Numbered from the stretch's first letter, positions 2,017 to 13,918 are shown. The stretch is DNA of 13,974 bases from Bacteroidota bacterium (GCA_040386315.1 JAZKFS010000113.1:1-13974); one strand, 5' to 3'. Numbers and translations are program-made. The notes: generated by a model not told the origin, from the sequence alone.

Positions 2017-3246
2017 ATGAACATCCTCGAATCTATAATGATCGCCCTCGAAGCTGTTCGCAGCCAGAAACTGCGGTCTGCGCTGACGCTGCTGAGTATC
2101 GCTATCGGTATTTTTGCTATTATCGGCGTGGGAACGGCTATCACGTCGCTTGATGGTGCTATCACGGGGCAGCTGGCGAGTATGGGCGAGAACTCGTTTG
2201 TTATAAAACGTACGCCGAGCATCCAGACAGGAAATTCGTGGCGTAAATACAGGAAGCGCAAGCCCATCACCTATTCGCAGGGAGAGGATTTTAAAAGGCG
2301 GATGGAGTCCACCACGCAGATCAGCATGAGCAATTCCACAGGTGGAATGACAATAAAGGCGGCTACGCTCTCCACCAATCCTGATGTATCTCTCACCGGC
2401 TGCGATGATGTATATTTCAGCAATAATAGTATTGATGTTTCCGAAGGGCGGCCTTTCGCGGCGGATGATATTTCTCTCAACCGTCCGGTGGCGCTGATCG
2501 GGAATGATGTGGTGGTAAAACTTTTCCCTTATTCCACTCCCATCGGGCAGAGAATTACCATACAAAATCAATCTTATACTATCATAGGACTTTTAAAAAC
2601 AAAAGGGGCGATGCTGGGACAGAGCCAGGACAATCAGGTACTGATCCCCATCTCACACTTCATGCGGTACTTTACCAATGAGTGGGAAGAGTCCATTGAT
2701 ATAATGGTGCGGGCGGATAATCGCCAGGCATTGCCGGAAACGTTAGATGAAGCGATCGGTACGCTACGCGCCCTGCGCAATGTAAAGCCCTGGGAAGAGA
2801 ATAATTTTGAAATAGAAACGGGCGAATCCCTTGCCGAACAGTTCGCGGGGTTTACCGGGTTTTTGTCGAACTTTGGTCTGCTGGCGGGGGGATTTGCGCT
2901 GGCGGCGGCGGGGATCGGCATTATGAATATTATGCTCGTCACCGTCAAGGAACGCACCCGCGAGATCGGTATCCGCAAGGCAATAGGCGCGCGCAGCACA
3001 TGGATACTCACGCAGTTTATCGTGGAGGCCATCACGCTATGCCAGCTGGGGGGTATTATTGGTATTATCCTCGGTATTTTTGGCGGCTGGGGCCTGAGTT
3101 CGCTTATGTCGCTCCCGCTTTCACTTCCCGTGGGGTGGATAGTAGGCAGCGTGGTGATCTGTACGCTTATCGGCCTCTGCTTTGGGGCATATCCCGCGTG
3201 GAAAGCTGCTAAGCTCGACCCGATAGAAGCTCTACGGTATGAGTAG
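2017..3246 (+). CDS. ABC transporter permease, FtsX/MacB family (second paralogue)
   Basis: 409-aa ORF. N-terminal TM helix (LTLLSIAIGIFAIIGVG), FtsX box ERTREIGIRKAIGA, and a C-terminus ...AKLDPIEALRYE that is almost identical to the end of the preceding permease. Confidence 0.9.
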   Translation: MNILESIMIALEAVRSQKLRSALTLLSIAIGIFAIIGVGTAITSLDGAITGQLASMGENSFVIKRTPSIQTGNSWRKYRKRKPITYSQGEDFKRRMESTTQISMSNSTGGMTIKAATLSTNPDVSLTGCDDVYFSNNSIDVSEGRPFAADDISLNRPVALIGNDVVVKLFPYSTPIGQRITIQNQSYTIIGLLKTKGAMLGQSQDNQVLIPISHFMRYFTNEWEESIDIMVRADNRQALPETLDEAIGTLRALRNVKPWEENNFEIETGESLAEQFAGFTGFLSNFGLLAGGFALAAAGIGIMNIMLVTVKERTREIGIRKAIGARSTWILTQFIVEAITLCQLGGIIGIILGIFGGWGLSSLMSLPLSLPVGWIVGSVVICTLIGLCFGAYPAWKAAKLDPIEALRYE

Positions 3247-3271
3247 CAGCTCCCTACAATATATAATGCAG

Positions 3272-3314
3272 AAAGGCGGAAAAGTTTTAAAGCTCTTCCG
3301 CCTTTTTGCGTTTT
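3272..3314. terminator. Rho-independent terminator (bidirectional geometry) downstream of FtsX permease 2 and of the convergent PIN gene
   Basis: The sequence aaaggcggaa-aagttttaaagctc-ttccgccttt forms a perfect 10-bp GC-containing stem. It is followed by tttttgcgtttt and preceded by an A-run on the opposite strand. Confidence 0.65.
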
Positions 3315-3330
3315 AAAGAGATACTATATT

Positions 3331-3729
3331 CTAACTACGTTTAAATTCATCAATTTTCTTAACCTGCACGGTTTTATCTATTCCCTGAAAATCATCCCAA
3401 TCATCAGTTATTAAATCCGCACCTAAACTTTTGGCTGTCGCTAATATAATTGCATCAGGTAATTTAATTTTTCTGAGTGTATTTTTCCTGTACTCAATTA
3501 CCTGTTCGGCAATAGCAGCATGGACTTCTACTATATCCAGATTATTAAACATTTCATCAATTAAGCCCTTTTCGCTCTCCTCCGAAAAATTATAGCCATA
3601 TACTTCCATAAAGCTAATAATGGAAATATATACCTCATCATATATAGAAAGCAACCGCTCAATATCTATCTTTTGTTTAGAAGCAAAAATGATAACATTC
3701 GTATCCAGTACTACTTTATTCCCACTCAT
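3331..3729 (-). CDS. vapC: PIN-domain ribonuclease, VapC-like type II toxin
   Basis: The N-terminus MSGNKVVLDTNVIIF has the PIN signature. The usual conserved acidic positions appear to be present (D in LDTNV, E in SFMEV, D in DAIILATA, D in LITDDWDD). I use the second ATG (3727-3729) rather than the ORF-track start at 3762. This puts a PIN-typical N-terminus on the protein and leaves only a 14-nt overlap with the upstream small gene. Confidence 0.85.
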   Translation of the reverse strand: MSGNKVVLDTNVIIFASKQKIDIERLLSIYDEVYISIISFMEVYGYNFSEESEKGLIDEMFNNLDIVEVHAAIAEQVIEYRKNTLRKIKLPDAIILATAKSLGADLITDDWDDFQGIDKTVQVKKIDEFKRS

Positions 3730-3955
3730 CGCGCACCTTTCGCTGCCAGCCGGTAGGATCATCTATAGACGAAAACATATCATGCCCTTCCATTTTTTTA
3801 AAAGCGGTCAGCAGCGCTTTCTTCTTTGAAAGAAGATCATCAGGCACATCCAGGAGCACAATAATACGGGCATACGTATTCTCGTATTTATTATACTGCT
3901 CAGGCAGCCGGATCATGCCTTTCTCTATCTTGGTTGAGAATTCTAATGCATTCAT
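3716..3955 (-). CDS. Putative antitoxin partner of the PIN toxin (80 aa, family not recognised)
   Basis: A small ORF lies immediately upstream of vapC on the same strand and overlaps its start by 14 nt, which is typical type II TA architecture. The start is taken at MNALEFSTKIEKGMIRLPEQ... (ATG complement at 3953-3955). The longer ORF-track start at 4021 is possible but adds a hydrophobic, non-conserved-looking leader. An ACGT-rich near-palindrome (tttacgtaacgtaaa, 3981-3995) sits ~30 nt upstream and could be an operator. Confidence 0.5.
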   Translation of the reverse strand: MNALEFSTKIEKGMIRLPEQYNKYENTYARIIVLLDVPDDLLSKKKALLTAFKKMEGHDMFSSIDDPTGWQRKVRDEWE

Positions 3956-4032
3956 ATTATTTCTCTCGTAGTGTGATTTCTTTACGTAACGTAAAAATAT
4001 ACAAAGAATTTCATTTTGCATAGAAGGCTATT

Positions 4033-4067
4033 AAGCCTGACCCGATAGAAGCTCTGCGCTACGAGTA
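4033..4067 (+). other. Duplicated 3'-terminal fragment of an FtsX permease gene (encodes ...KPDPIEALRYE*), direct repeat of 3211-3246
   Basis: aagcctgacccgatagaagctctgcgctacgagtag (4033-4067) compares with aagctcgacccgatagaagctctacggtatgagtag (3211-3246) at 30 of 35 identical positions. The differences are mostly synonymous third-position changes, and the in-frame stop is retained. The two copies bracket the vapBC-like insert. Confidence 0.7.
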
Positions 4068-4098
4068 GGTTTTAAAACTTTTATTCTTTAAAAGAATA

Positions 4099-4130
4099 AA
4101 CGCCACCTTTTAAAAAGAGCGGCGTTTTAG
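4099..4130 (-). terminator. Probable rho-independent terminator downstream of the flotillin gene (minus strand), also 3' of the FtsX-remnant/TA region
   Basis: aacgcc (4099-4104) pairs with ggcgtt (4121-4126) around a 16-nt loop. On the minus strand the stem is followed by a T-rich tract (tttattctttt). An adjacent AT-rich hairpin ttattcttTAAAagaataa sits at 4081-4099. Confidence 0.4.
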
Positions 4131-4157
4131 TTTTAAAATGGGTTTGGTTTAAAAACC

Positions 4158-5693
4158 TTAATCCACCATCGTCCCATTGCCTTTTACTTCCTTTGCTTCT
4201 ACAATAGTCTCCGCCGCACTTTTTAAAACCGGCTGTGCATCGCTATTAGAAGAAAGGTGATTGAAAATATTAATACCGGTAGCATTTTCAATTGTTTCGG
4301 CAAGTGACAGGACCGCTGACGGCATCTGGTTGACGAGTCTGCCAAAGCTTCCACCGTTCGTACCGCCCTGATCTATCACGCTCATTTTATCAATATTGAT
4401 CTTATTGACCGTCGAGGTAAGCTGGGTGATAATTTCCGGCAGCATATTGAGGATAAATACTTTTTCGGCGTCTGTTCCGGCAGATTGATAGGTTTCGATC
4501 ATCGTTTTGATAACGCTCAGGCGGGCCTGTCCGCTTTCATTGATGGCAGCTGCTGCTCCCTGCGCTTCTAGTTCGGCTGCTTCTTTTTTCGCGCGGGCGG
4601 GTTCGATCACATCAGCCTGTAGTTTCTGCTGCTGGAGAATTACACGCGCGCGCTGTACTTCCTGCTCAAACTGTACGCGGGCTTTTTCGCCGGATGTGCT
4701 GGCTTCCTGTTCTTTTACGATAGCGATCTTGTCTAGTTCAGCTTTGCGCACACGCAGATTGTTATTTTCATTTTCCACCTGCTGCTGTGCTATTGCCTGT
4801 GCTACACGGAGTTCGCGGTCTGATTCGATATGCGCGGCCTGGATAGTTTGCTGTGCGCGTGTTTTGGCAACTTCTGCGCGTTGATGCGCTTCGGCCTGGG
4901 CTTCATCGGCAAATGCCTGCGCGGCTGACTGCGCTTTCTTTACTTCGCGCTCTGTATCAATTTGCGCTGATTTAATTCCCTGCTCCGATCTTGCTTTGGC
5001 AACTTCCACACGCAGGCGTGCTGTAGCTTCTGCTTCTTCTGCTTCGGCAGCTTTTTCGGCTTCTGTAGTACGTGCGGCGGCAATTACCTCGGCAGTTTTA
5101 CGGCGGCCGATGGAATCTAAATATCCCGACTGGTCGGAAATATTCTGAATTTTAAAAGTATCAAGGCGAAGGCCCAGTTGTTTTAGATCTTCATCAGCTT
5201 CTTCCATTAGACTGTGAGCAAATTTAAGGCGGTCTTCGTTAATTTCTTCCGGTGTAAGCGATGCGAGAACCCCGCGAAGGTTTCCTTCAAGCGTATCTTT
5301 TGCAATTTCATGTATTCCCTCCAACGGCTTACCCAGAAAACGCTCTACAGCATTTCCAAATGTCGGCTCGGTAGAATCAATTTTCACGTTGGCAATTGCT
5401 TCCACGCCAAGAGGAATTCCCCCTTTGGAATACGCATTATGCACACTCAGCTCGATGGGAATAGTTTCCAGCGACATCTTAGCCGCCTTCTCTAAAATAG
5501 GGATCCGCACCGCGCGACCACCACGAATGATCCTGTAACCGACTGTTGTCCCGTCCGTCAGCGTACGCGAACGCCCCGAAAGGATCATCACCTCATTCGG
5601 GTGAACGATAAACAAGAACCTGCTGATGAAAAACATCACGACAACCAAAGCCAGCAGGATAATTCCGCCGACACTGAATATAAATTCGACCAT
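4158..5693 (-). CDS. Flotillin-like SPFH/band-7 protein (YqiK/FloT family)
   Basis: N-terminal hydrophobic anchor (MVEFIFSVGGIILLALVVVMFF), an SPFH-like region, then a long Ala/Glu-rich coiled coil (AEAEEAEATARLRVEVAKARSEQ...) typical of flotillins. It lies directly downstream of an NfeD-like gene. The start is placed at the ATG with a GGAGG Shine-Dalgarno 8 nt upstream (ATG complement at 5691-5693), not at the longer ORF-track start 5771. Confidence 0.85.
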   Translation of the reverse strand: MVEFIFSVGGIILLALVVVMFFISRFLFIVHPNEVMILSGRSRTLTDGTTVGYRIIRGGRAVRIPILEKAAKMSLETIPIELSVHNAYSKGGIPLGVEAIANVKIDSTEPTFGNAVERFLGKPLEGIHEIAKDTLEGNLRGVLASLTPEEINEDRLKFAHSLMEEADEDLKQLGLRLDTFKIQNISDQSGYLDSIGRRKTAEVIAAARTTEAEKAAEAEEAEATARLRVEVAKARSEQGIKSAQIDTEREVKKAQSAAQAFADEAQAEAHQRAEVAKTRAQQTIQAAHIESDRELRVAQAIAQQQVENENNNLRVRKAELDKIAIVKEQEASTSGEKARVQFEQEVQRARVILQQQKLQADVIEPARAKKEAAELEAQGAAAAINESGQARLSVIKTMIETYQSAGTDAEKVFILNMLPEIITQLTSTVNKINIDKMSVIDQGGTNGGSFGRLVNQMPSAVLSLAETIENATGINIFNHLSSNSDAQPVLKSAAETIVEAKEVKGNGTMVD

Positions 5694-5768
5694 TATTGAG
5701 CCTCCGAAAAAAAATATGAAAAGTTTTAAGAAACTGTATATTTGAATTTTCTTAAAAGTCCCCCTTAT

Positions 5769-5849
5769 CAAGGGGGATTTAGGGGGATTTCTTTTGACGC
5801 GGAATCCCCTTTGTCCCCCTTGATAAGGGGGGGGATAAGATTCTTTAGT
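5769..5849. repeat. Cluster of two poly-G/C hairpins (tcccccttatcaaggggga and cccccttgataaggggggg) in the nfeD-flotillin spacer; relative of the 371-405 repeat
   Basis: Perfect 7-8-bp C5TT/AAG5 stems with 3-nt loops lie at 5770-5788 and 5825-5847. The reverse complement of 5813-5849 closely matches 371-405. These hairpins sit in the spacer between the nfeD stop and the floT start. Confidence 0.55.
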
Positions 5850-9237: not shown

Positions 9238-9264
9238 TTTTAAAAAATCCTTTTTAAAAACAAT

Positions 9265-10798: not shown

Positions 10799-10914
10799 TT
10801 TTGTCTGAACTAGGATTTCTGGGATTTGAGGATTGAAGGATTTCTTTTAAAAGTTAGATTTTAAAAGGCTTCACGCAAAGGAAATGCGAAAAGCTGACGA
10901 TTTCCTGTTGACGT

Positions 10915-11113
10915 GAATCCCTCTGCCCTACGGGCATCTCCCTTAATAAGGGAGACTTTCTTCTGATGTGTTTTTTTAATTGTCATTCCCTTGAAAAAGG
11001 GAATCAACATCGGACGTTGCTTTAAAGCTTTTTGCCGTGAAGCAGAGTTTTTAAAAGCATTTTGCTTTTTGGCAACTGTTGGAGGAGATTCCCGCTTTCG
11101 CTGGGAATGACAG
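10915..11113. repeat. Second copy of the hairpin-repeat family: full left unit plus H2-type inverted partner; right outer arm absent
   Basis: 10915-10960 gaatccctctgccctacgggcatctcccttaataagggagactttc matches 1739-1790. 10981-11008 tgtcattcccttgaaaaagggaatcaac is module H2. 11084-11113 ggagattcccgctttcgctgggaatgacag is H2 in inverted orientation. The element lies inside the 573-bp ybbA-ybbP spacer. Confidence 0.7.
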
Positions 11114-11371
11114 TTTAAAAAAATACTTTTTAAAAGTTTAGATGATTGAATTAGTTTTTAAAGAAAATCCTTTAATCCTGAAATCCTATAAATCATAGTT
11201 CAGACGAAAATAAACAGGTGCTATTGACGGCAAGGGTGACCGCCCACTGCTGGTGGAATGATGTACGACCGGACACAAATAATTTCCTGATATTCTTTTT
11301 AAAAGTCTTTTAAAAGCTGGTGTTTTTAAAAACTTTTTCAATTTTACTTTTACCTTTTTACTTTTCAATAA

Positions 11372-13918
11372 ATGAATTTTCTCCGCGCACTTTTTGCTTC
11401 ATGGACGTATAAGATGGCGTGGCGCGACAGCCGCACGCATCGCCGGAAACTGCTGATGTTTATGTCGAGCATTGTGCTGGGCGTAGCGTCGCTGGTGGCG
11501 ATTGACGGGTTTGGCGAGAGTATGCAGGCGTCAATTGCGACGGAGTCGAAGTCGCTGCTGGGGGCTGACCTGGCGCTGGATAGTAAGCAGAAGTTTTCTG
11601 AGGATGCGGAGCGGCTGATTGATTCGATCGGGAGGACTTTTAAAGGTGAGCAGGCGCGGCAAACGAGCTTTACGTCGATGATCTACCTGCCGAAAAGTGA
11701 AAGTGCGAGGTTTGCGCAGATACGCGCGCTGGAGGGAAATTTCCCGTTTTACGGTGATTTTGAAACGGAACCGGCGGGTGTGACACGGCTTTTTAAAAAC
11801 AGTGAATTTGCGGTGATCGATGAGAGTTTTTTAAAAGAAGAGGGCGGCGTGATCGGCGATACGTTGCAGGTTGGCGCGGCAAAACTGATCATTAAAGGGC
11901 TTTTAAAAAAGGCGCCGGGCGAGGCATCGGTTGTGGCGATGGCTGCGCCGCGCGTGTATATTCCGGTTTCTGTCCTGGAAAAAACGGGTCTGCTTCAGCA
12001 AGGCAGCCGTATGCAGTATAAAGTGTTTTTTAAATTTCCGGAGAATGTTCGCGGGAAAGCGATCGGCGATTCACTGGATGTAAAGCTGACGAAAAATCAA
12101 ATTGATTACGAAACGCCGGAGTCACGGCAGCAGGCGCTGGAACTCGTTCTTGATAATGTCAACCGGTTTTTAAAACTTCTGGGTTTTATTGCGTTGCTGC
12201 TGGGCGGCGCGGGTGTGGCGAGCGCGGTGTATGCGTACATCCGGCAGAAACTTCCGACGATCGCGGTGCTGCGTTGCCTTGGCGCGACGGCTTCTCAGAC
12301 GTTTGCGGTGTATTGCGTGCAGGCGATCGCGATGGGATTTATTGGTTCGGTGGCGGGCGCGCTTGTCGGTGTGGCAATTCAATATTCCCTTCCCGCGATT
12401 TTTAAAGACCTCATTCCGTCTGACCTTTCGATGGTTTTGCCGCTGCGCTCAATTGGACGCGGAATCCTGACGGGCGTGGGAATGTCGCTGCTTTTTGCGA
12501 TGCTGCCGCTGCTTTCCATTCGTAAAGTTGAACCGTTTTCTGCGCTGCGTGCTTCGTTTGAGGAAGGCTTGCAAAAGCCTGATCCGCTGCGGTTTGTGCT
12601 ATATGCGGTGATCGCTGTTGCGGTGTATTTTTTCGCGTATGCGCAGACTGAAAATTACATTGCAGCAGCTGTGTATTCGGTTTCGCTTGCAGTTGTCTTT
12701 GGCGCACTGGCGCTGGCGGCGATTGTTTTACGAAAGCTTTTAAAAGCATTTTTCCCGGGTAGTTTTCCGTATGTGTGGCGGCAGGGTTTGGCGAATCTTT
12801 TTCGTCCGAATAACCAGACGCTGACGCTGATGGTAAGCCTGGGATTTGGTACGTTTTTAATTTCCATGCTGTATATTGTGCAGAGCAATCTTTTAAACCA
12901 GCTTTCCGTGGCGGGTTCGGCGGGGCAACCGAATTTCATACTTTTTGATGTGCAGAAAGACCAGCGTACGGGCGTTCTGGACATTTTAAAAACTAATAAA
13001 GCAATCATTGTAGATGAAGCGCCGATAGTTTCTATGCGCCTTGAAACGATCAAAGGCAAAACTATTGACGAAAATTCCGCTAACCCGAATGAGCGAATGA
13101 AAGTGATGCAGCGCGAATACCGCGTTACGTACCGCAATAAGCTCGCCGACAATGAAGAATTAACACTCGGAACGCTTCAAAAACGAGCGCCGGATTTGCA
13201 GCATGTACAGATCTCGCTGGCTGACCGGCTGGCAGAATTGTGGGAAGTGAAGATCGGCGATGAGATTCGTTTTAATGTGCAGGGGCTGATAATTAACGCG
13301 AAAGTGGGCTCGCTGCGCAAGGTGAATTTCAGGAAAGTGCAGACGAGTTTTCAGATCGTTTTTCCGCCGGGAGTTTTGGAAGATGCGCCGCAATTCTACA
13401 CGGTTATTATTAAAACGCCTAATAAAAACGGCGCCCAAATCCAAAGCCAGCTTGCGCAGAAATACCCGAATGTTTCCGCGATTGACCTCGGGCTGATCCT
13501 GGAAACGGTAGATAAGATCTTACAAAAGGTTGCCTCCATCATTCGCTTTATGGCGCTTTTCAGCGTGGTGACAGGGCTAACGGTACTGGCTTCAAGCATT
13601 ATCATTAGCCGCTACCAGCGCTCCCGCGAAAATGTCCTACTGCGGACGCTTGGCGCGACTGGCCGGCAGATCACGCTTATCACGCTGGCAGAATATTTCC
13701 TGCTCGGGCTACTTGCTGCGCTGACTGGAATGCTGCTCTCCTATCTCGGCTCGTGGCTGATGGTCACACAGGCGTTCCGTCTGGAATATAAACCGGAATG
13801 GGCTCTTGGGCTGGTTATTGCGCTTTGCGTAGCGCTACTTGTGATGATCATGGGATTTTTAAACAGCCGGAGTTCTTTAAAAATGCCGCCGTTGGAGGTT
13901 TTGCGGAGCGGGGTGTAG
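11372..13918 (+). CDS. ybbP: YbbP-like ABC transporter permease with two FtsX domains (848 aa, predicted ~10 TM)
   Basis: Large permease with two hydrophobic FtsX-type TM clusters (approx. aa 270-460 and 700-848), each following a soluble domain. The N-terminus (MNFLRALFASW…RRKLLMFMSSIVLGVASLVAIDGF) resembles E. coli YbbP. It follows a ybbA-like gene and is divergent to tesA, reproducing the tesA-ybbA-ybbP synteny. Confidence 0.9.
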   Translation: MNFLRALFASWTYKMAWRDSRTHRRKLLMFMSSIVLGVASLVAIDGFGESMQASIATESKSLLGADLALDSKQKFSEDAERLIDSIGRTFKGEQARQTSFTSMIYLPKSESARFAQIRALEGNFPFYGDFETEPAGVTRLFKNSEFAVIDESFLKEEGGVIGDTLQVGAAKLIIKGLLKKAPGEASVVAMAAPRVYIPVSVLEKTGLLQQGSRMQYKVFFKFPENVRGKAIGDSLDVKLTKNQIDYETPESRQQALELVLDNVNRFLKLLGFIALLLGGAGVASAVYAYIRQKLPTIAVLRCLGATASQTFAVYCVQAIAMGFIGSVAGALVGVAIQYSLPAIFKDLIPSDLSMVLPLRSIGRGILTGVGMSLLFAMLPLLSIRKVEPFSALRASFEEGLQKPDPLRFVLYAVIAVAVYFFAYAQTENYIAAAVYSVSLAVVFGALALAAIVLRKLLKAFFPGSFPYVWRQGLANLFRPNNQTLTLMVSLGFGTFLISMLYIVQSNLLNQLSVAGSAGQPNFILFDVQKDQRTGVLDILKTNKAIIVDEAPIVSMRLETIKGKTIDENSANPNERMKVMQREYRVTYRNKLADNEELTLGTLQKRAPDLQHVQISLADRLAELWEVKIGDEIRFNVQGLIINAKVGSLRKVNFRKVQTSFQIVFPPGVLEDAPQFYTVIIKTPNKNGAQIQSQLAQKYPNVSAIDLGLILETVDKILQKVASIIRFMALFSVVTGLTVLASSIIISRYQRSRENVLLRTLGATGRQITLITLAEYFLLGLLAALTGMLLSYLGSWLMVTQAFRLEYKPEWALGLVIALCVALLVMIMGFLNSRSSLKMPPLEVLRSGV

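Follow-up and report, generated by a model that had tools for sequence, protein, structure and literature searches.

The window considered here is a complete contig of 13,974 nt from a metagenome-assembled genome (MAG) labelled 'Bacteroidota bacterium' (GCA_040386315.1, JAZKFS010000113.1:1-13974), the left part of which carries the tail of an ATP-binding cassette (ABC) ATPase gene (9-326) and the genes of two MacB-type permeases, FtsX-1 (476-1711) and FtsX-2. Directly past the stop codon of FtsX-2 lies a block of 771 nt (3247-4017) that contains a hairpin, a minus-strand gene for a PIN-domain protein and a minus-strand gene for a protein of 79 residues, and no other open reading frame (ORF). 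The block is followed by a second, imperfect copy of the last 51 nt of FtsX-2. This analysis concerns that block, which appears to be a toxin-antitoxin (TA) cassette of the VapBC type, and the gene-end repeat that brackets it. Features of the window are collected in the table below, along with host genes at which related or comparable cassettes are bracketed by direct repeats; loci fetched for comparison are designated by L numbers.

Table. Features of the window, and host genes at other loci whose cassettes are bracketed by direct repeats
Feature	Position	Strand	Description
FtsX-2	2017..3246	+	Second MacB-type ABC permease, last gene of the efflux operon, intact; Pfam MacB_PCD 2.6e-34, FtsX 3.9e-20
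Upstream repeat copy	3196..3246	+	Functional FtsX-2 3' end (..AWKAAKLDPIEALRYE, stop), ending exactly at the stop codon TAG 3244-3246
Hairpin segment of the insert, 84 nt	3247..3330	.	Hairpin 3265-3312, then a T-run on the plus strand
VapC-like PIN-domain toxin gene, 132 aa	3331..3729	-	Pfam PIN 1.3e-15, above cut-off
Putative antitoxin gene, 79 aa	3716..3955	-	Overlaps the toxin start by 14 nt; independent gene calls agree
Putative cassette promoter/operator region	3956..4019	-	Promoter-side end of the cassette at about 4019
Downstream repeat copy	4018..4068	+	Apparently the displaced, decaying original FtsX-2 3' end (A, stop, KAIKPDPIEALRYE, stop)
Putative native FtsX-2/Band_7 spacer	4069..4157	.	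Apparent original bidirectional terminator hairpin (about 4099-4126); 8-mer TTTTAAAA motifs; fold z -4.2, -4.1
SPFH/Band_7 gene	4158..5771	-	Convergent, context, outside the insert; Pfam Band_7 2.8e-21
L093, host MmeI-type restriction-modification gene			Repeat about 115 nt, 95-100% identical
L101, host Laminin_G_3 gene			Repeat 79 nt, 92% identical
L102, L104, L109, L111, L115, L117, L122, FAD-linked oxidase gene ending ..FDPNGILNPGKMFV, stop			Repeat lengths various
L150, xisI, bracketing a HepT/MNT pair			Repeat 81 nt, 96% identical

A repeat search of the window finds the two copies as a direct repeat of 51 nt with a spacing of 822 nt, identical at 41 of 51 positions (80%). They have in common an exact 17-mer, for which 0.006 occurrences per window would be expected by chance, and a degenerate 30-nt pattern, GACCCGATAGAAGCTCTNCGNTAYGAGTAG, matches at 3217-3246 and 4039-4068 only, with no match in 200 shuffles. 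A first-pass annotation of this DNA had described a shorter duplication of the gene end. The repeat is real, and its 36-nt core corresponds to 3211-3246 and 4033-4068, so that the end at 4067 given for the remnant fell one base short, with homology extending 5' to 4018. Within this core the copies do differ mainly at synonymous sites, as had been proposed, but over all 51 nt the differences comprise five synonymous third-base changes and three changed codons (W to stop, A to I and L to P). The downstream copy thus carries an in-frame TGG to TAG change at 4021-4023 ahead of its final stop codon, TAG, at 4066-4068, and 14 of its codons are detectable by tblastn (E 3e-4). As a separately assembled contig, L001 of the Logan collection (run SRR26324626), is 100% identical to the window over both junctions (2651-5775), mis-assembly is argued against.

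Comparison with related genomes bears on which of the two gene ends is the older. Orthologues of FtsX-2 are 57-71% identical to it (71%, 70%, 65% and 64% for the best homologues), have 409-413 residues, and are encoded by the last gene of the operon in every case. Six related lineages were inspected (L002, L003, L082/083, L084/085 and L086-088); all have the ABC, FtsX-1 and FtsX-2 genes with FtsX-2 last and unrelated genes next, and in four of the six the genes of an outer membrane efflux protein (OEP) and a membrane fusion protein (MFP) are seen upstream. All six lack a TA pair and a remnant past the end of FtsX-2, a third FtsX gene is likewise absent there, and hence neither of the arrangements that the earlier proposal of an insertion had named as speaking against it, a third full-length FtsX gene or a TA pair universally present at the site, was encountered in these lineages. 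Among FtsX-type termini in about 1 Mb of related loci, only 1 of 105 is an orphan remnant, namely that of the window.

The spacers lead in the same direction. The 89 nt that follow the remnant (4069-4157) and the 80-nt spacer past FtsX-2 in the nearest relative, L082 (9231-9310), are reciprocal best matches, 74% identical over 69 columns (E 2e-5), both from the first base past the stop codon, and both contain an identical type of hairpin with a TTTTAAAAA loop; the 84 nt past the present FtsX-2 stop codon give no match in this comparison. Because the spacer past the remnant best matches the spacer past FtsX-2 in the nearest relative, the remnant would be the displaced original gene end. This evidence is supportive rather than conclusive for reading 4018-4068 and the terminator that follows as the original end of the FtsX-2 region, and 3247-4017 together with one 51-nt repeat as inserted DNA. 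Taken with the relatives, it supports the core of the earlier proposal, that the 3' end of FtsX-2 received a TA cassette and is now present on both sides of it; the accompanying suggestion, that the junctions are of attL/attR type and the element brought its own replacement end, is not separable from a target-derived duplication. We consider it highly probable that the locus represents an inserted selfish cassette with a duplicated gene end. It may be observed separately that FtsX-2 of the window and of L082 share only 69% nucleotide identity, with third positions saturated, against about 74% in the spacer, and that the gene downstream is Band_7 in the one and ychF in the other; the similarity of the spacers may reflect either selection on the spacer or a dispersed family of terminator repeats.

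Gene decay offers a different explanation of the fragment, in which a third FtsX paralogue once stood here, the TA cassette took the place of its body, and 4018-4068 is all that is left of it. FtsX genes are indeed multi-copy here, with the FtsX-1/FtsX-2 tandem and a further, fused gene at 11372-13918, and the C-terminal motif is generic to the family. The third gene is found at this position in no relative inspected, however, and a tblastn search of 3247-4017 gave no further FtsX-like coding trace beneath the cassette. The fragment is closest to the end of FtsX-2 itself (41/51), although the best of 103 other FtsX ends reaches 40/51, the repeat being short and conserved; it is followed by a spacer of native FtsX-2 type, and like architecture occurs at unrelated single-copy genes. 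A decayed paralogue is very unlikely, with a probability close to nil, and was rejected.

The inserted block differs from its surroundings in composition, with a GC content of 0.36 versus 0.46 for the rest of the window. The PIN gene has a GC content of 0.33 and a third-position value (GC3) of 0.29, compared with 0.44-0.52 and 0.41-0.61 for native genes, and it is because of this GC3 difference that the block is taken as foreign. Its content is as the first-pass annotation had it, a terminator and a minus-strand TA pair and nothing else. The hairpin at its FtsX-proximal side folds with a free energy of -28.7 kcal/mol (z -6.0) on the plus strand and -28.1 kcal/mol (z -4.2) on the minus strand, and the 84-nt segment that contains it has no homologue in any fetched locus, L082 included, and lies outside the cassette core common to L153. 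Both this hairpin and that of the native spacer were identified by folding; a consensus terminator scan missed them. No inverted repeat joins the two ends of 3247-4019, where the sole strong inverted repeat is the internal hairpin (3262-3315), and there is no transposase ORF. A transposon or insertion sequence was ruled out, as terminal inverted repeats and a transposase are both absent from the insert. Nor was a recombinase detected by Pfam among the 11 ORFs scanned in the window, whose insert is too small for one, in agreement with the earlier statement that the window has no integrase.

The PIN protein matches solved VapC ribonucleases (7by2_B at 4e-9), and across 54 homologues its acidic residues D9, E42, D92 and D110/D113 show little or no variation. 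The 79-residue protein has no Pfam or NCBIfam match even at E = 10 that would point to a recognised DNA-binding fold (AbrB, RHH, Phd/YefM or HTH). Its C-terminal motif, W-Q-(R/K)-K-x-R-D-E-W-(E/D), is nevertheless common to the partner genes of homologous PIN genes, and the pairing of a small upstream gene with a PIN gene is present in every homologous locus inspected. A perfect palindrome, TTTACGT-A-ACGTAAA, at 3981-3995 upstream of the antitoxin gene may plausibly be an autoregulatory operator. The pair is thus probably a type II TA module of the VapBC type, which in itself is ordinary: like other such modules it has a PIN toxin with conserved acidic residues, a small overlapping upstream antitoxin gene and a putative palindromic operator, and it differs from them in that the antitoxin matches no described family. 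An exact-protein look-up returned no record for FtsX-2 and, for the TA proteins, led only to L001, which is of the same strain.

Homologous cassettes elsewhere indicate what the unit may be. The closest, L153, comes from another genome rich in TTTTAAAA, where it occupies a different site; its PIN protein is 74% identical, and nucleotide identity of about 80% runs from GCAAAATGAAATTCTTTGTATATTTTTACGTT, on the promoter side, to the PIN stop codon. In the window this homology stops at about 4019, and the FtsX remnant has its 5' edge at 4018; as the two agree to within 2 nt, the cassette end directly adjoins the target. At about 690 nt, the cassette is thus taken to be a discrete, mobile unit. In a census of the family, loci with PIN homologues were fetched and direct repeats were sought between the two 600-nt flanks of each cassette. 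Such repeats flank 15 of 35 cassettes and 13 of 384 random 650-nt pseudo-cassettes (Fisher p = 5e-11); when the site at a FAD-linked oxidase gene is counted once, 9 of 29 are positive (p = 3e-6). The targeting of gene 3' ends, which the first-pass annotation had suggested from the window, is supported by such gene-end brackets throughout the family.

The repeats of the family loci range from 26 to 205 nt, and those of L093 and L115 are fully identical. An exact match between the end of the repeat and the host stop codon is seen in the window, at FAD-oxidase loci such as L117, and at L101; the repeat ends past the stop codon, by 4 nt, in L150, and 38 nt further in L093. At L092, L096, L099, L106 and L121 intergenic repeats, or repeats resembling repetitive extragenic palindromes (REP-like), are found instead. 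The TA genes are convergent with the host gene in the window and co-directional with it at the FAD-oxidase, MmeI and Laminin_G_3 sites. No attC-like structure was found; single-stranded folds of the repeats of the window, the FAD-oxidase group, L101 and L093 have z-scores of -0.3 to -1.5. A 9-mer, TCGACCCGA, was considered as a shared core. The repeats of FtsX and of the FAD-oxidase gene both contain it (post hoc p about 0.01), but the others lack it, and it was treated as a coincidence of codons. Two of the loci are of interest in their own right. In L093 (4443-5692 and 5725-6348) an array of REP-like units of 27-30 nt (AGGTGCGTAGCACCRCAACATTTGTAG), present in six copies or more, adjoins the TA cassette at the end of the MmeI gene, and a Y1 (RAYT/IS200-like) transposase gene lies beside this array. 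L150 (1-6432) is a dense TA island with three PIN pairs, three XisH/XisI pairs and a HepT/MNT pair, in which a 333-nt, 87% repeat (891-1223 and 4095-4416) covers an antitoxin-like gene.

The 3' end of the FAD-linked oxidase gene is a hot spot at which TA and defence cassettes, each followed by a copy of the gene end of 40-78 nt, are found in arrays (L111 1-2420; L109 116-4502; L113 1060-4420). Their cargo includes VapBC pairs, DUF6036 nucleotidyltransferase pairs, RelBE, AIPR with a D12 methyltransferase, and ThsB-TIR with a caspase-like protease. In L111 the order is the gene end (TAA), a VapBC pair, a 55-nt copy (TGA), a DUF6036 nucleotidyltransferase pair, a 62-nt copy (TGA), a RelB/RelE-like pair, a further 62-nt copy (TGA) and the native gene, with the stop codon of the toxin 0-25 nt from the next gene-end copy in each cassette. 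Three gene-end copies in L109 separate a VapBC pair, an AIPR block and a further cassette; the AIPR block consists of the AIPR gene, the D12 methyltransferase gene and a second antitoxin-like gene of the same family, for which a partner PIN gene is assumed. L113 has genes for ThsB-TIR, the caspase-like protease and a DUF6036 protein with its preceding ORF, then a 78-nt copy, a VapBC pair and a decayed copy, while L122 has two remnants. No recombinase was found among the cassette ORFs scanned in L109, L111 and L113.

These gene-end remnants carry frameshifts and substitutions and so appear to be decaying. Their 5' edges cluster at 50-62 nt from the stop codon, within a range of 26 to 78 nt. The stop codon is TAA next to the cassette and TGA in the remnants, and the remnant of L102 begins CATCAAAAAAG, as do those of L111, whereas the L102 gene itself reads GATATTAAAAAGG at that point. 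As a separate observation, the repeat past the PIN gene in L115 (417-1209) is not confined to the gene end but leads into the start of another cassette copy, where the contig ends, which suggests either tandem amplification of a unit of gene end plus cassette or a loop in the assembly.

How might such cassettes enter a gene end without destroying the gene? The explanation favoured here, which we hold with about even confidence when taken as a whole, is that insertion was followed by a repeat-based life cycle of the kind proposed for restriction-modification (RM) units; the anatomy, the foreign composition, the absence from relatives, the native DNA past the remnant, the bracketing across the family and the arrays are observed, whereas its recombination steps and the TA function are ones that we infer. 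A foreign block of 771 nt would have entered directly past the FtsX-2 stop codon along with a second copy of the last 51 nt of the gene. The upstream copy would keep FtsX-2 at full length, and the hairpin of the block would now end FtsX-2 transcription and shield the convergent PIN gene. The downstream copy would be the original end after displacement, which still adjoins the native terminator and is decaying through one nonsense and two missense codons, so that the old gene end and its terminator would now serve the Band_7 side only. As an addiction module with a PIN ribonuclease toxin, a labile antitoxin and a palindromic operator, the cassette would resist loss once inserted, the TA pair probably stabilising itself by post-segregational killing.

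The life cycle would begin when a cassette inserts at a site not occupied before and a long stretch of the target is duplicated. Recombination of repeat with repeat would then give either amplification or a circle carrying one repeat copy, and re-entry into related genomes by recombination of the Campbell type between the cassette-linked gene-end copy and a chromosomal gene end would build arrays. The predicted circle joins 4017 via one repeat copy to 3247, and at the predicted empty site ..GGTATGAGTAG or ..GCTACGAGTAG would be joined to GTTTTAAAACTTTT. A target-derived first entry is argued for because the repeats are specific to their sites, the same cassette is found at different sites, the junction has no extra bases and some repeats are 100% identical. 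Later recombination via a cassette-linked copy is argued for by the single copy per cassette, the similar lengths of these copies, the L111-like remnant in L102 and the difference between TAA and TGA stop codons. Entry bracketed by gene-end repeats would on this evidence be a recurrent habit of the cassette family of the window and of other TA and defence cassettes.

Which step of the cycle gave rise to the locus in the window is not singled out by the properties of its two copies. The present end agrees with the FtsX-2 end of the nearest relative at 43 of 51 positions and the remnant at 38 of 51. Codon usage of the two copies gives a mixed signal, from five codons only, and no mosaic signal is visible along FtsX-2 in comparison with L082, third positions being saturated. 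Repeat differences fall at third codon positions in 12 of 19 cases, which departs from a uniform distribution (p = 0.007) but not from the share of 0.45 expected under decay in situ (p = 0.09).

Several observations weigh against this explanation. No same-species empty site was found; FtsX-2 identity does not exceed 71% among the best relatives, and in the nearest relative it is only 70%, with a different gene downstream. The best match of the native spacer, at 35 bits, exceeds those of other TTTTAAAA-rich spacers (26-30 bits) by a modest margin. In the census, 20 of the 35 homologous cassettes have no detectable flanking repeat, one site supplies 7 of the 15 repeat-positive loci, and the controls are random positions rather than matched gene pairs. 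Moreover, neither a circular form, nor an excision product, nor a recombinase was observed. The least explained feature is the boundary of the repeat, exact to the stop codon in three independent genes (those of the window, the FAD-oxidase group and L101) and 4 nt beyond it in L150. A target-derived duplication leaves this boundary unexplained, as breaks at the level of DNA should not sense stop codons and random staggered breaks are not expected to produce it; a cassette-borne copy, for its part, leaves unexplained why there is a different gene end at each site. The boundary would be natural if the two copies were alleles from different lineages, because homology then ends with the coding sequence, and such an origin would fit either a cassette-borne copy or homology-facilitated illegitimate recombination (HFIR).

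Three other routes to the same architecture differ in which of these features they accommodate. Site-specific integration, which we judge unlikely, supposes an attP that held a copy of the FtsX-2 3' end, such that the repeats are attL and attR and the integrase acted in trans or has been deleted, as in a cis-mobilizable element (CIME), with the addictive TA pair as the sole part that could not be lost. This would agree with direct repeats that include the gene 3' end and stop at the stop codon, as for islands that target tRNA genes or gene ends, with the resemblance to tandem accretion of arrays that have one copy per cassette and similar lengths (55-78 nt), and with copies that differ preferentially at third codon positions (12/19). 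Yet neither an integrase nor a fragment of one is present in the insert, in the 11 window ORFs or in the scanned cassette ORFs of L109, L111 and L113. Three unrelated TA types are maximally compact, with the toxin stop 0-25 nt from the next repeat, which is unexpected from the random decay of islands, and a single cassette family occupies several different gene ends as well as repeat-free sites, with repeats that vary in length from 26 to 205 nt. Rather doubtful, too, is a single-step insertion in which a linear cassette was captured at a staggered double-strand break nicked 51 nt apart and gap filling duplicated the target, no cassette-linked gene end or circle ever having been involved. Repeats specific to the local target at five or more sites, a cassette end and a remnant that meet without added bases at a 2-nt GC microhomology, the fresh, fully identical repeats of L093 and L115, and the match with RM cases in variable repeat length and absent mobility genes are all in keeping with it. 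It fails to explain the reuse of one gene end with one copy per cassette or the stop-codon boundary, and the 84 nt at the PIN end that lie outside the conserved cassette and the remnant of L102, CATCAAAAAAG as in L111 where its own gene has GATATTAAAAAGG, also speak against it.

The stop-codon boundary is accommodated by HFIR following DNA uptake, in which a fragment of a related donor, with the 3' part of FtsX-2, the donor's own terminator and the cassette, was anchored by homology within FtsX-2 and joined illegitimately at its far end, 51 nt upstream of the recipient stop codon. Homology between lineages would then end with the coding sequence, the extra 84-nt terminator segment would be donor DNA, and the variable 5' edges of the remnants would be accounted for; the hyper-abundant 8-mer of this lineage recalls uptake sequences, and most RM cases are in naturally competent species. 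That the far junction lies exactly at the cassette end defined by L153 is, on the other hand, unexpected for the random end of a fragment. The present end is if anything nearer to the nearest relative (43/51) than is the remnant (38/51), FtsX-2 has no mosaic signal at its saturated third positions, and competence of the lineage is only assumed, so that we regard this route as quite improbable.

The favoured explanation, insertion with a subsequent repeat-based cycle, has its closest precedent in RM gene complexes, whose insertion has been found to come with long duplications of the target (Nobusato et al. 2000, Gene 259:99; Furuta, Abe & Kobayashi 2010, PMC2853133). The direct repeats of RM units exceed 30 bp, correspond to a single copy where the site is empty and in many cases overlap a gene 3' end; foreign GC content and the lack of mobility genes are typical of these units, for which a cycle of insertion, repeat-mediated amplification and release has been proposed (PMC2853133). 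The cassette of the window is likewise a small unit of post-segregational killing that is compositionally foreign, lacks a mobility gene and has repeats able to drive amplification. When set against the definition of Furuta et al. (2010), its flanking direct repeats are longer than 30 bp (51 nt, 41/51), and the insert is shorter than 20 kb (771 nt) and consists of a complete addiction unit with no other gene of a mobile element. For the single repeat copy at the empty site of a related genome, the comparison covers distant relatives only (FtsX-2 at most 71% identical), of which all six lineages have one gene end and no insert. The differences are that the cargo in the window is a type II TA pair rather than an RM system, that the repeat stops exactly at the stop codon in several independent genes, that there are arrays with one gene-end copy per cassette, and that the hosts are uncultivated Bacteroidota (Kapaibacteria-like MAGs) with no same-species empty site.

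Elements that accrete at gene ends provide a second comparison. CIMEs are att-flanked elements without an integrase that undergo tandem accretion (PMC5704250), and in tycheposon islands new arrivals push older units away behind partial tRNA copies (bioRxiv 10.1101/2020.12.28.424599). Here, too, the element-proximal copy restores the gene and partial gene copies are left between units. As for a CIME at a gene 3' end, the repeat in the window ends at the stop codon, but no recombinase is found in the window, although one encoded elsewhere in the genome may act in trans. The units differ further in being only 0.5-1 kb in size, with nothing but a TA or defence operon and no remnants of an integrase, and in that one cassette family is found at many gene ends with repeats of variable length.

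Integron cassettes and Xer-dependent pdif modules are compact, promoter-proximal units, often of TA type, each followed by a recombination site and stacked at one chromosomal position. The cassettes described here resemble them in being compact and promoter-proximal, in often encoding TA pairs, in having the repeated site directly next to them and in forming arrays. In contrast with integrons and pdif modules, the repeated site is the coding 3' end of a host gene and has no attC-like hairpin (z -0.3 to -1.5), and neither IntI nor a dif-like core of 28 bp was seen. A search of the literature on HFIR, or on long target duplications, in connection with TA cassettes returned nothing specific, and arrays and the stop-codon boundary were not found described. 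The architecture of the scar is of a known but rarely documented kind; what is added here is its extension to cassettes of TA and defence genes, together with the arrays and the stop-codon boundary.

Other repeats of the window are of note apart from the cassette. The 8-mer palindrome TTTTAAAA occurs 60 times (4.3 per kb), versus 1.8 expected, for example at 328-347, 1713-1731, 1993-2012, 4070-4138, 9238-9259 and 11297-11331. Half of the copies fall in the non-coding 15% of the window, often paired just past stop codons or in the loops of terminators. The locus of the nearest relative, L082, is equally dense in the motif, with 74 copies in 17.2 kb, compared with 0-0.3 per kb for other related lineages, and no other 8-mer palindrome composed of A and T alone is enriched; the motif looks like a lineage-specific one, either uptake-sequence-like or terminator-associated. 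Within the efflux operon, FtsX-1 and FtsX-2 are separated by 305 nt, versus none to about 70 nt in relatives, and nearly all of this spacer (1713-2012) forms one giant near-perfect hairpin (-154.7 kcal/mol, z -15.3) that holds a 29-nt, 97% inverted repeat (1793-1821 and 1901-1929). It looks like a foldback insertion, similar to a miniature inverted-repeat transposable element, within the operon. Small GC-rich, REP-like palindromic repeats of the types CCCCCTTATyAAGGGGG and GTCTCCCTTAnnAAGGGAGA are present in several intergenic regions (372-397, 5760-5785 and 5806-5831; 1939-1968 and 10933-10962), and an inverted pair of 54 nt, 85% identical (10799-10852 and 11156-11209), is also REP-like. Rfam and tRNA scans of the window gave no matches.

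How addiction and defence genes that lack an integrase enter gene-dense chromosomes without breaking host genes is a question that is still open, and insertions accompanied by long duplication of the target have been documented since 2000 with no mechanism. The locus in the window and its relatives extend this phenomenon from RM units to type II TA and other defence cassettes, and they offer dozens of natural replicates, including arrays of several cassettes at one gene end, by which target-derived and cassette-borne models become testable. For annotation, they imply that short, stop-terminated fragments of gene ends beside TA pairs are scars of insertion, not pseudogenes of paralogues.

A more speculative possibility, which we advance only tentatively, is that in these Bacteroidota, Kapaibacteria-like lineages, cassettes are acquired much as in integrons but with no integrase dedicated to the task, the 3' end of an ordinary chromosomal gene being the site of recombination. 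If so, compact TA and defence cassettes would each travel with a 50-80-nt copy of a host gene end, enter beside the stop codon, stack there, and pop out or amplify via their repeats. The stop boundary would then reflect either coding homology between lineages or breakage where the transcript loses the protection of translation and R-loops form, and the lineage-specific flood of TTTTAAAA might mark the natural DNA uptake that feeds the system.

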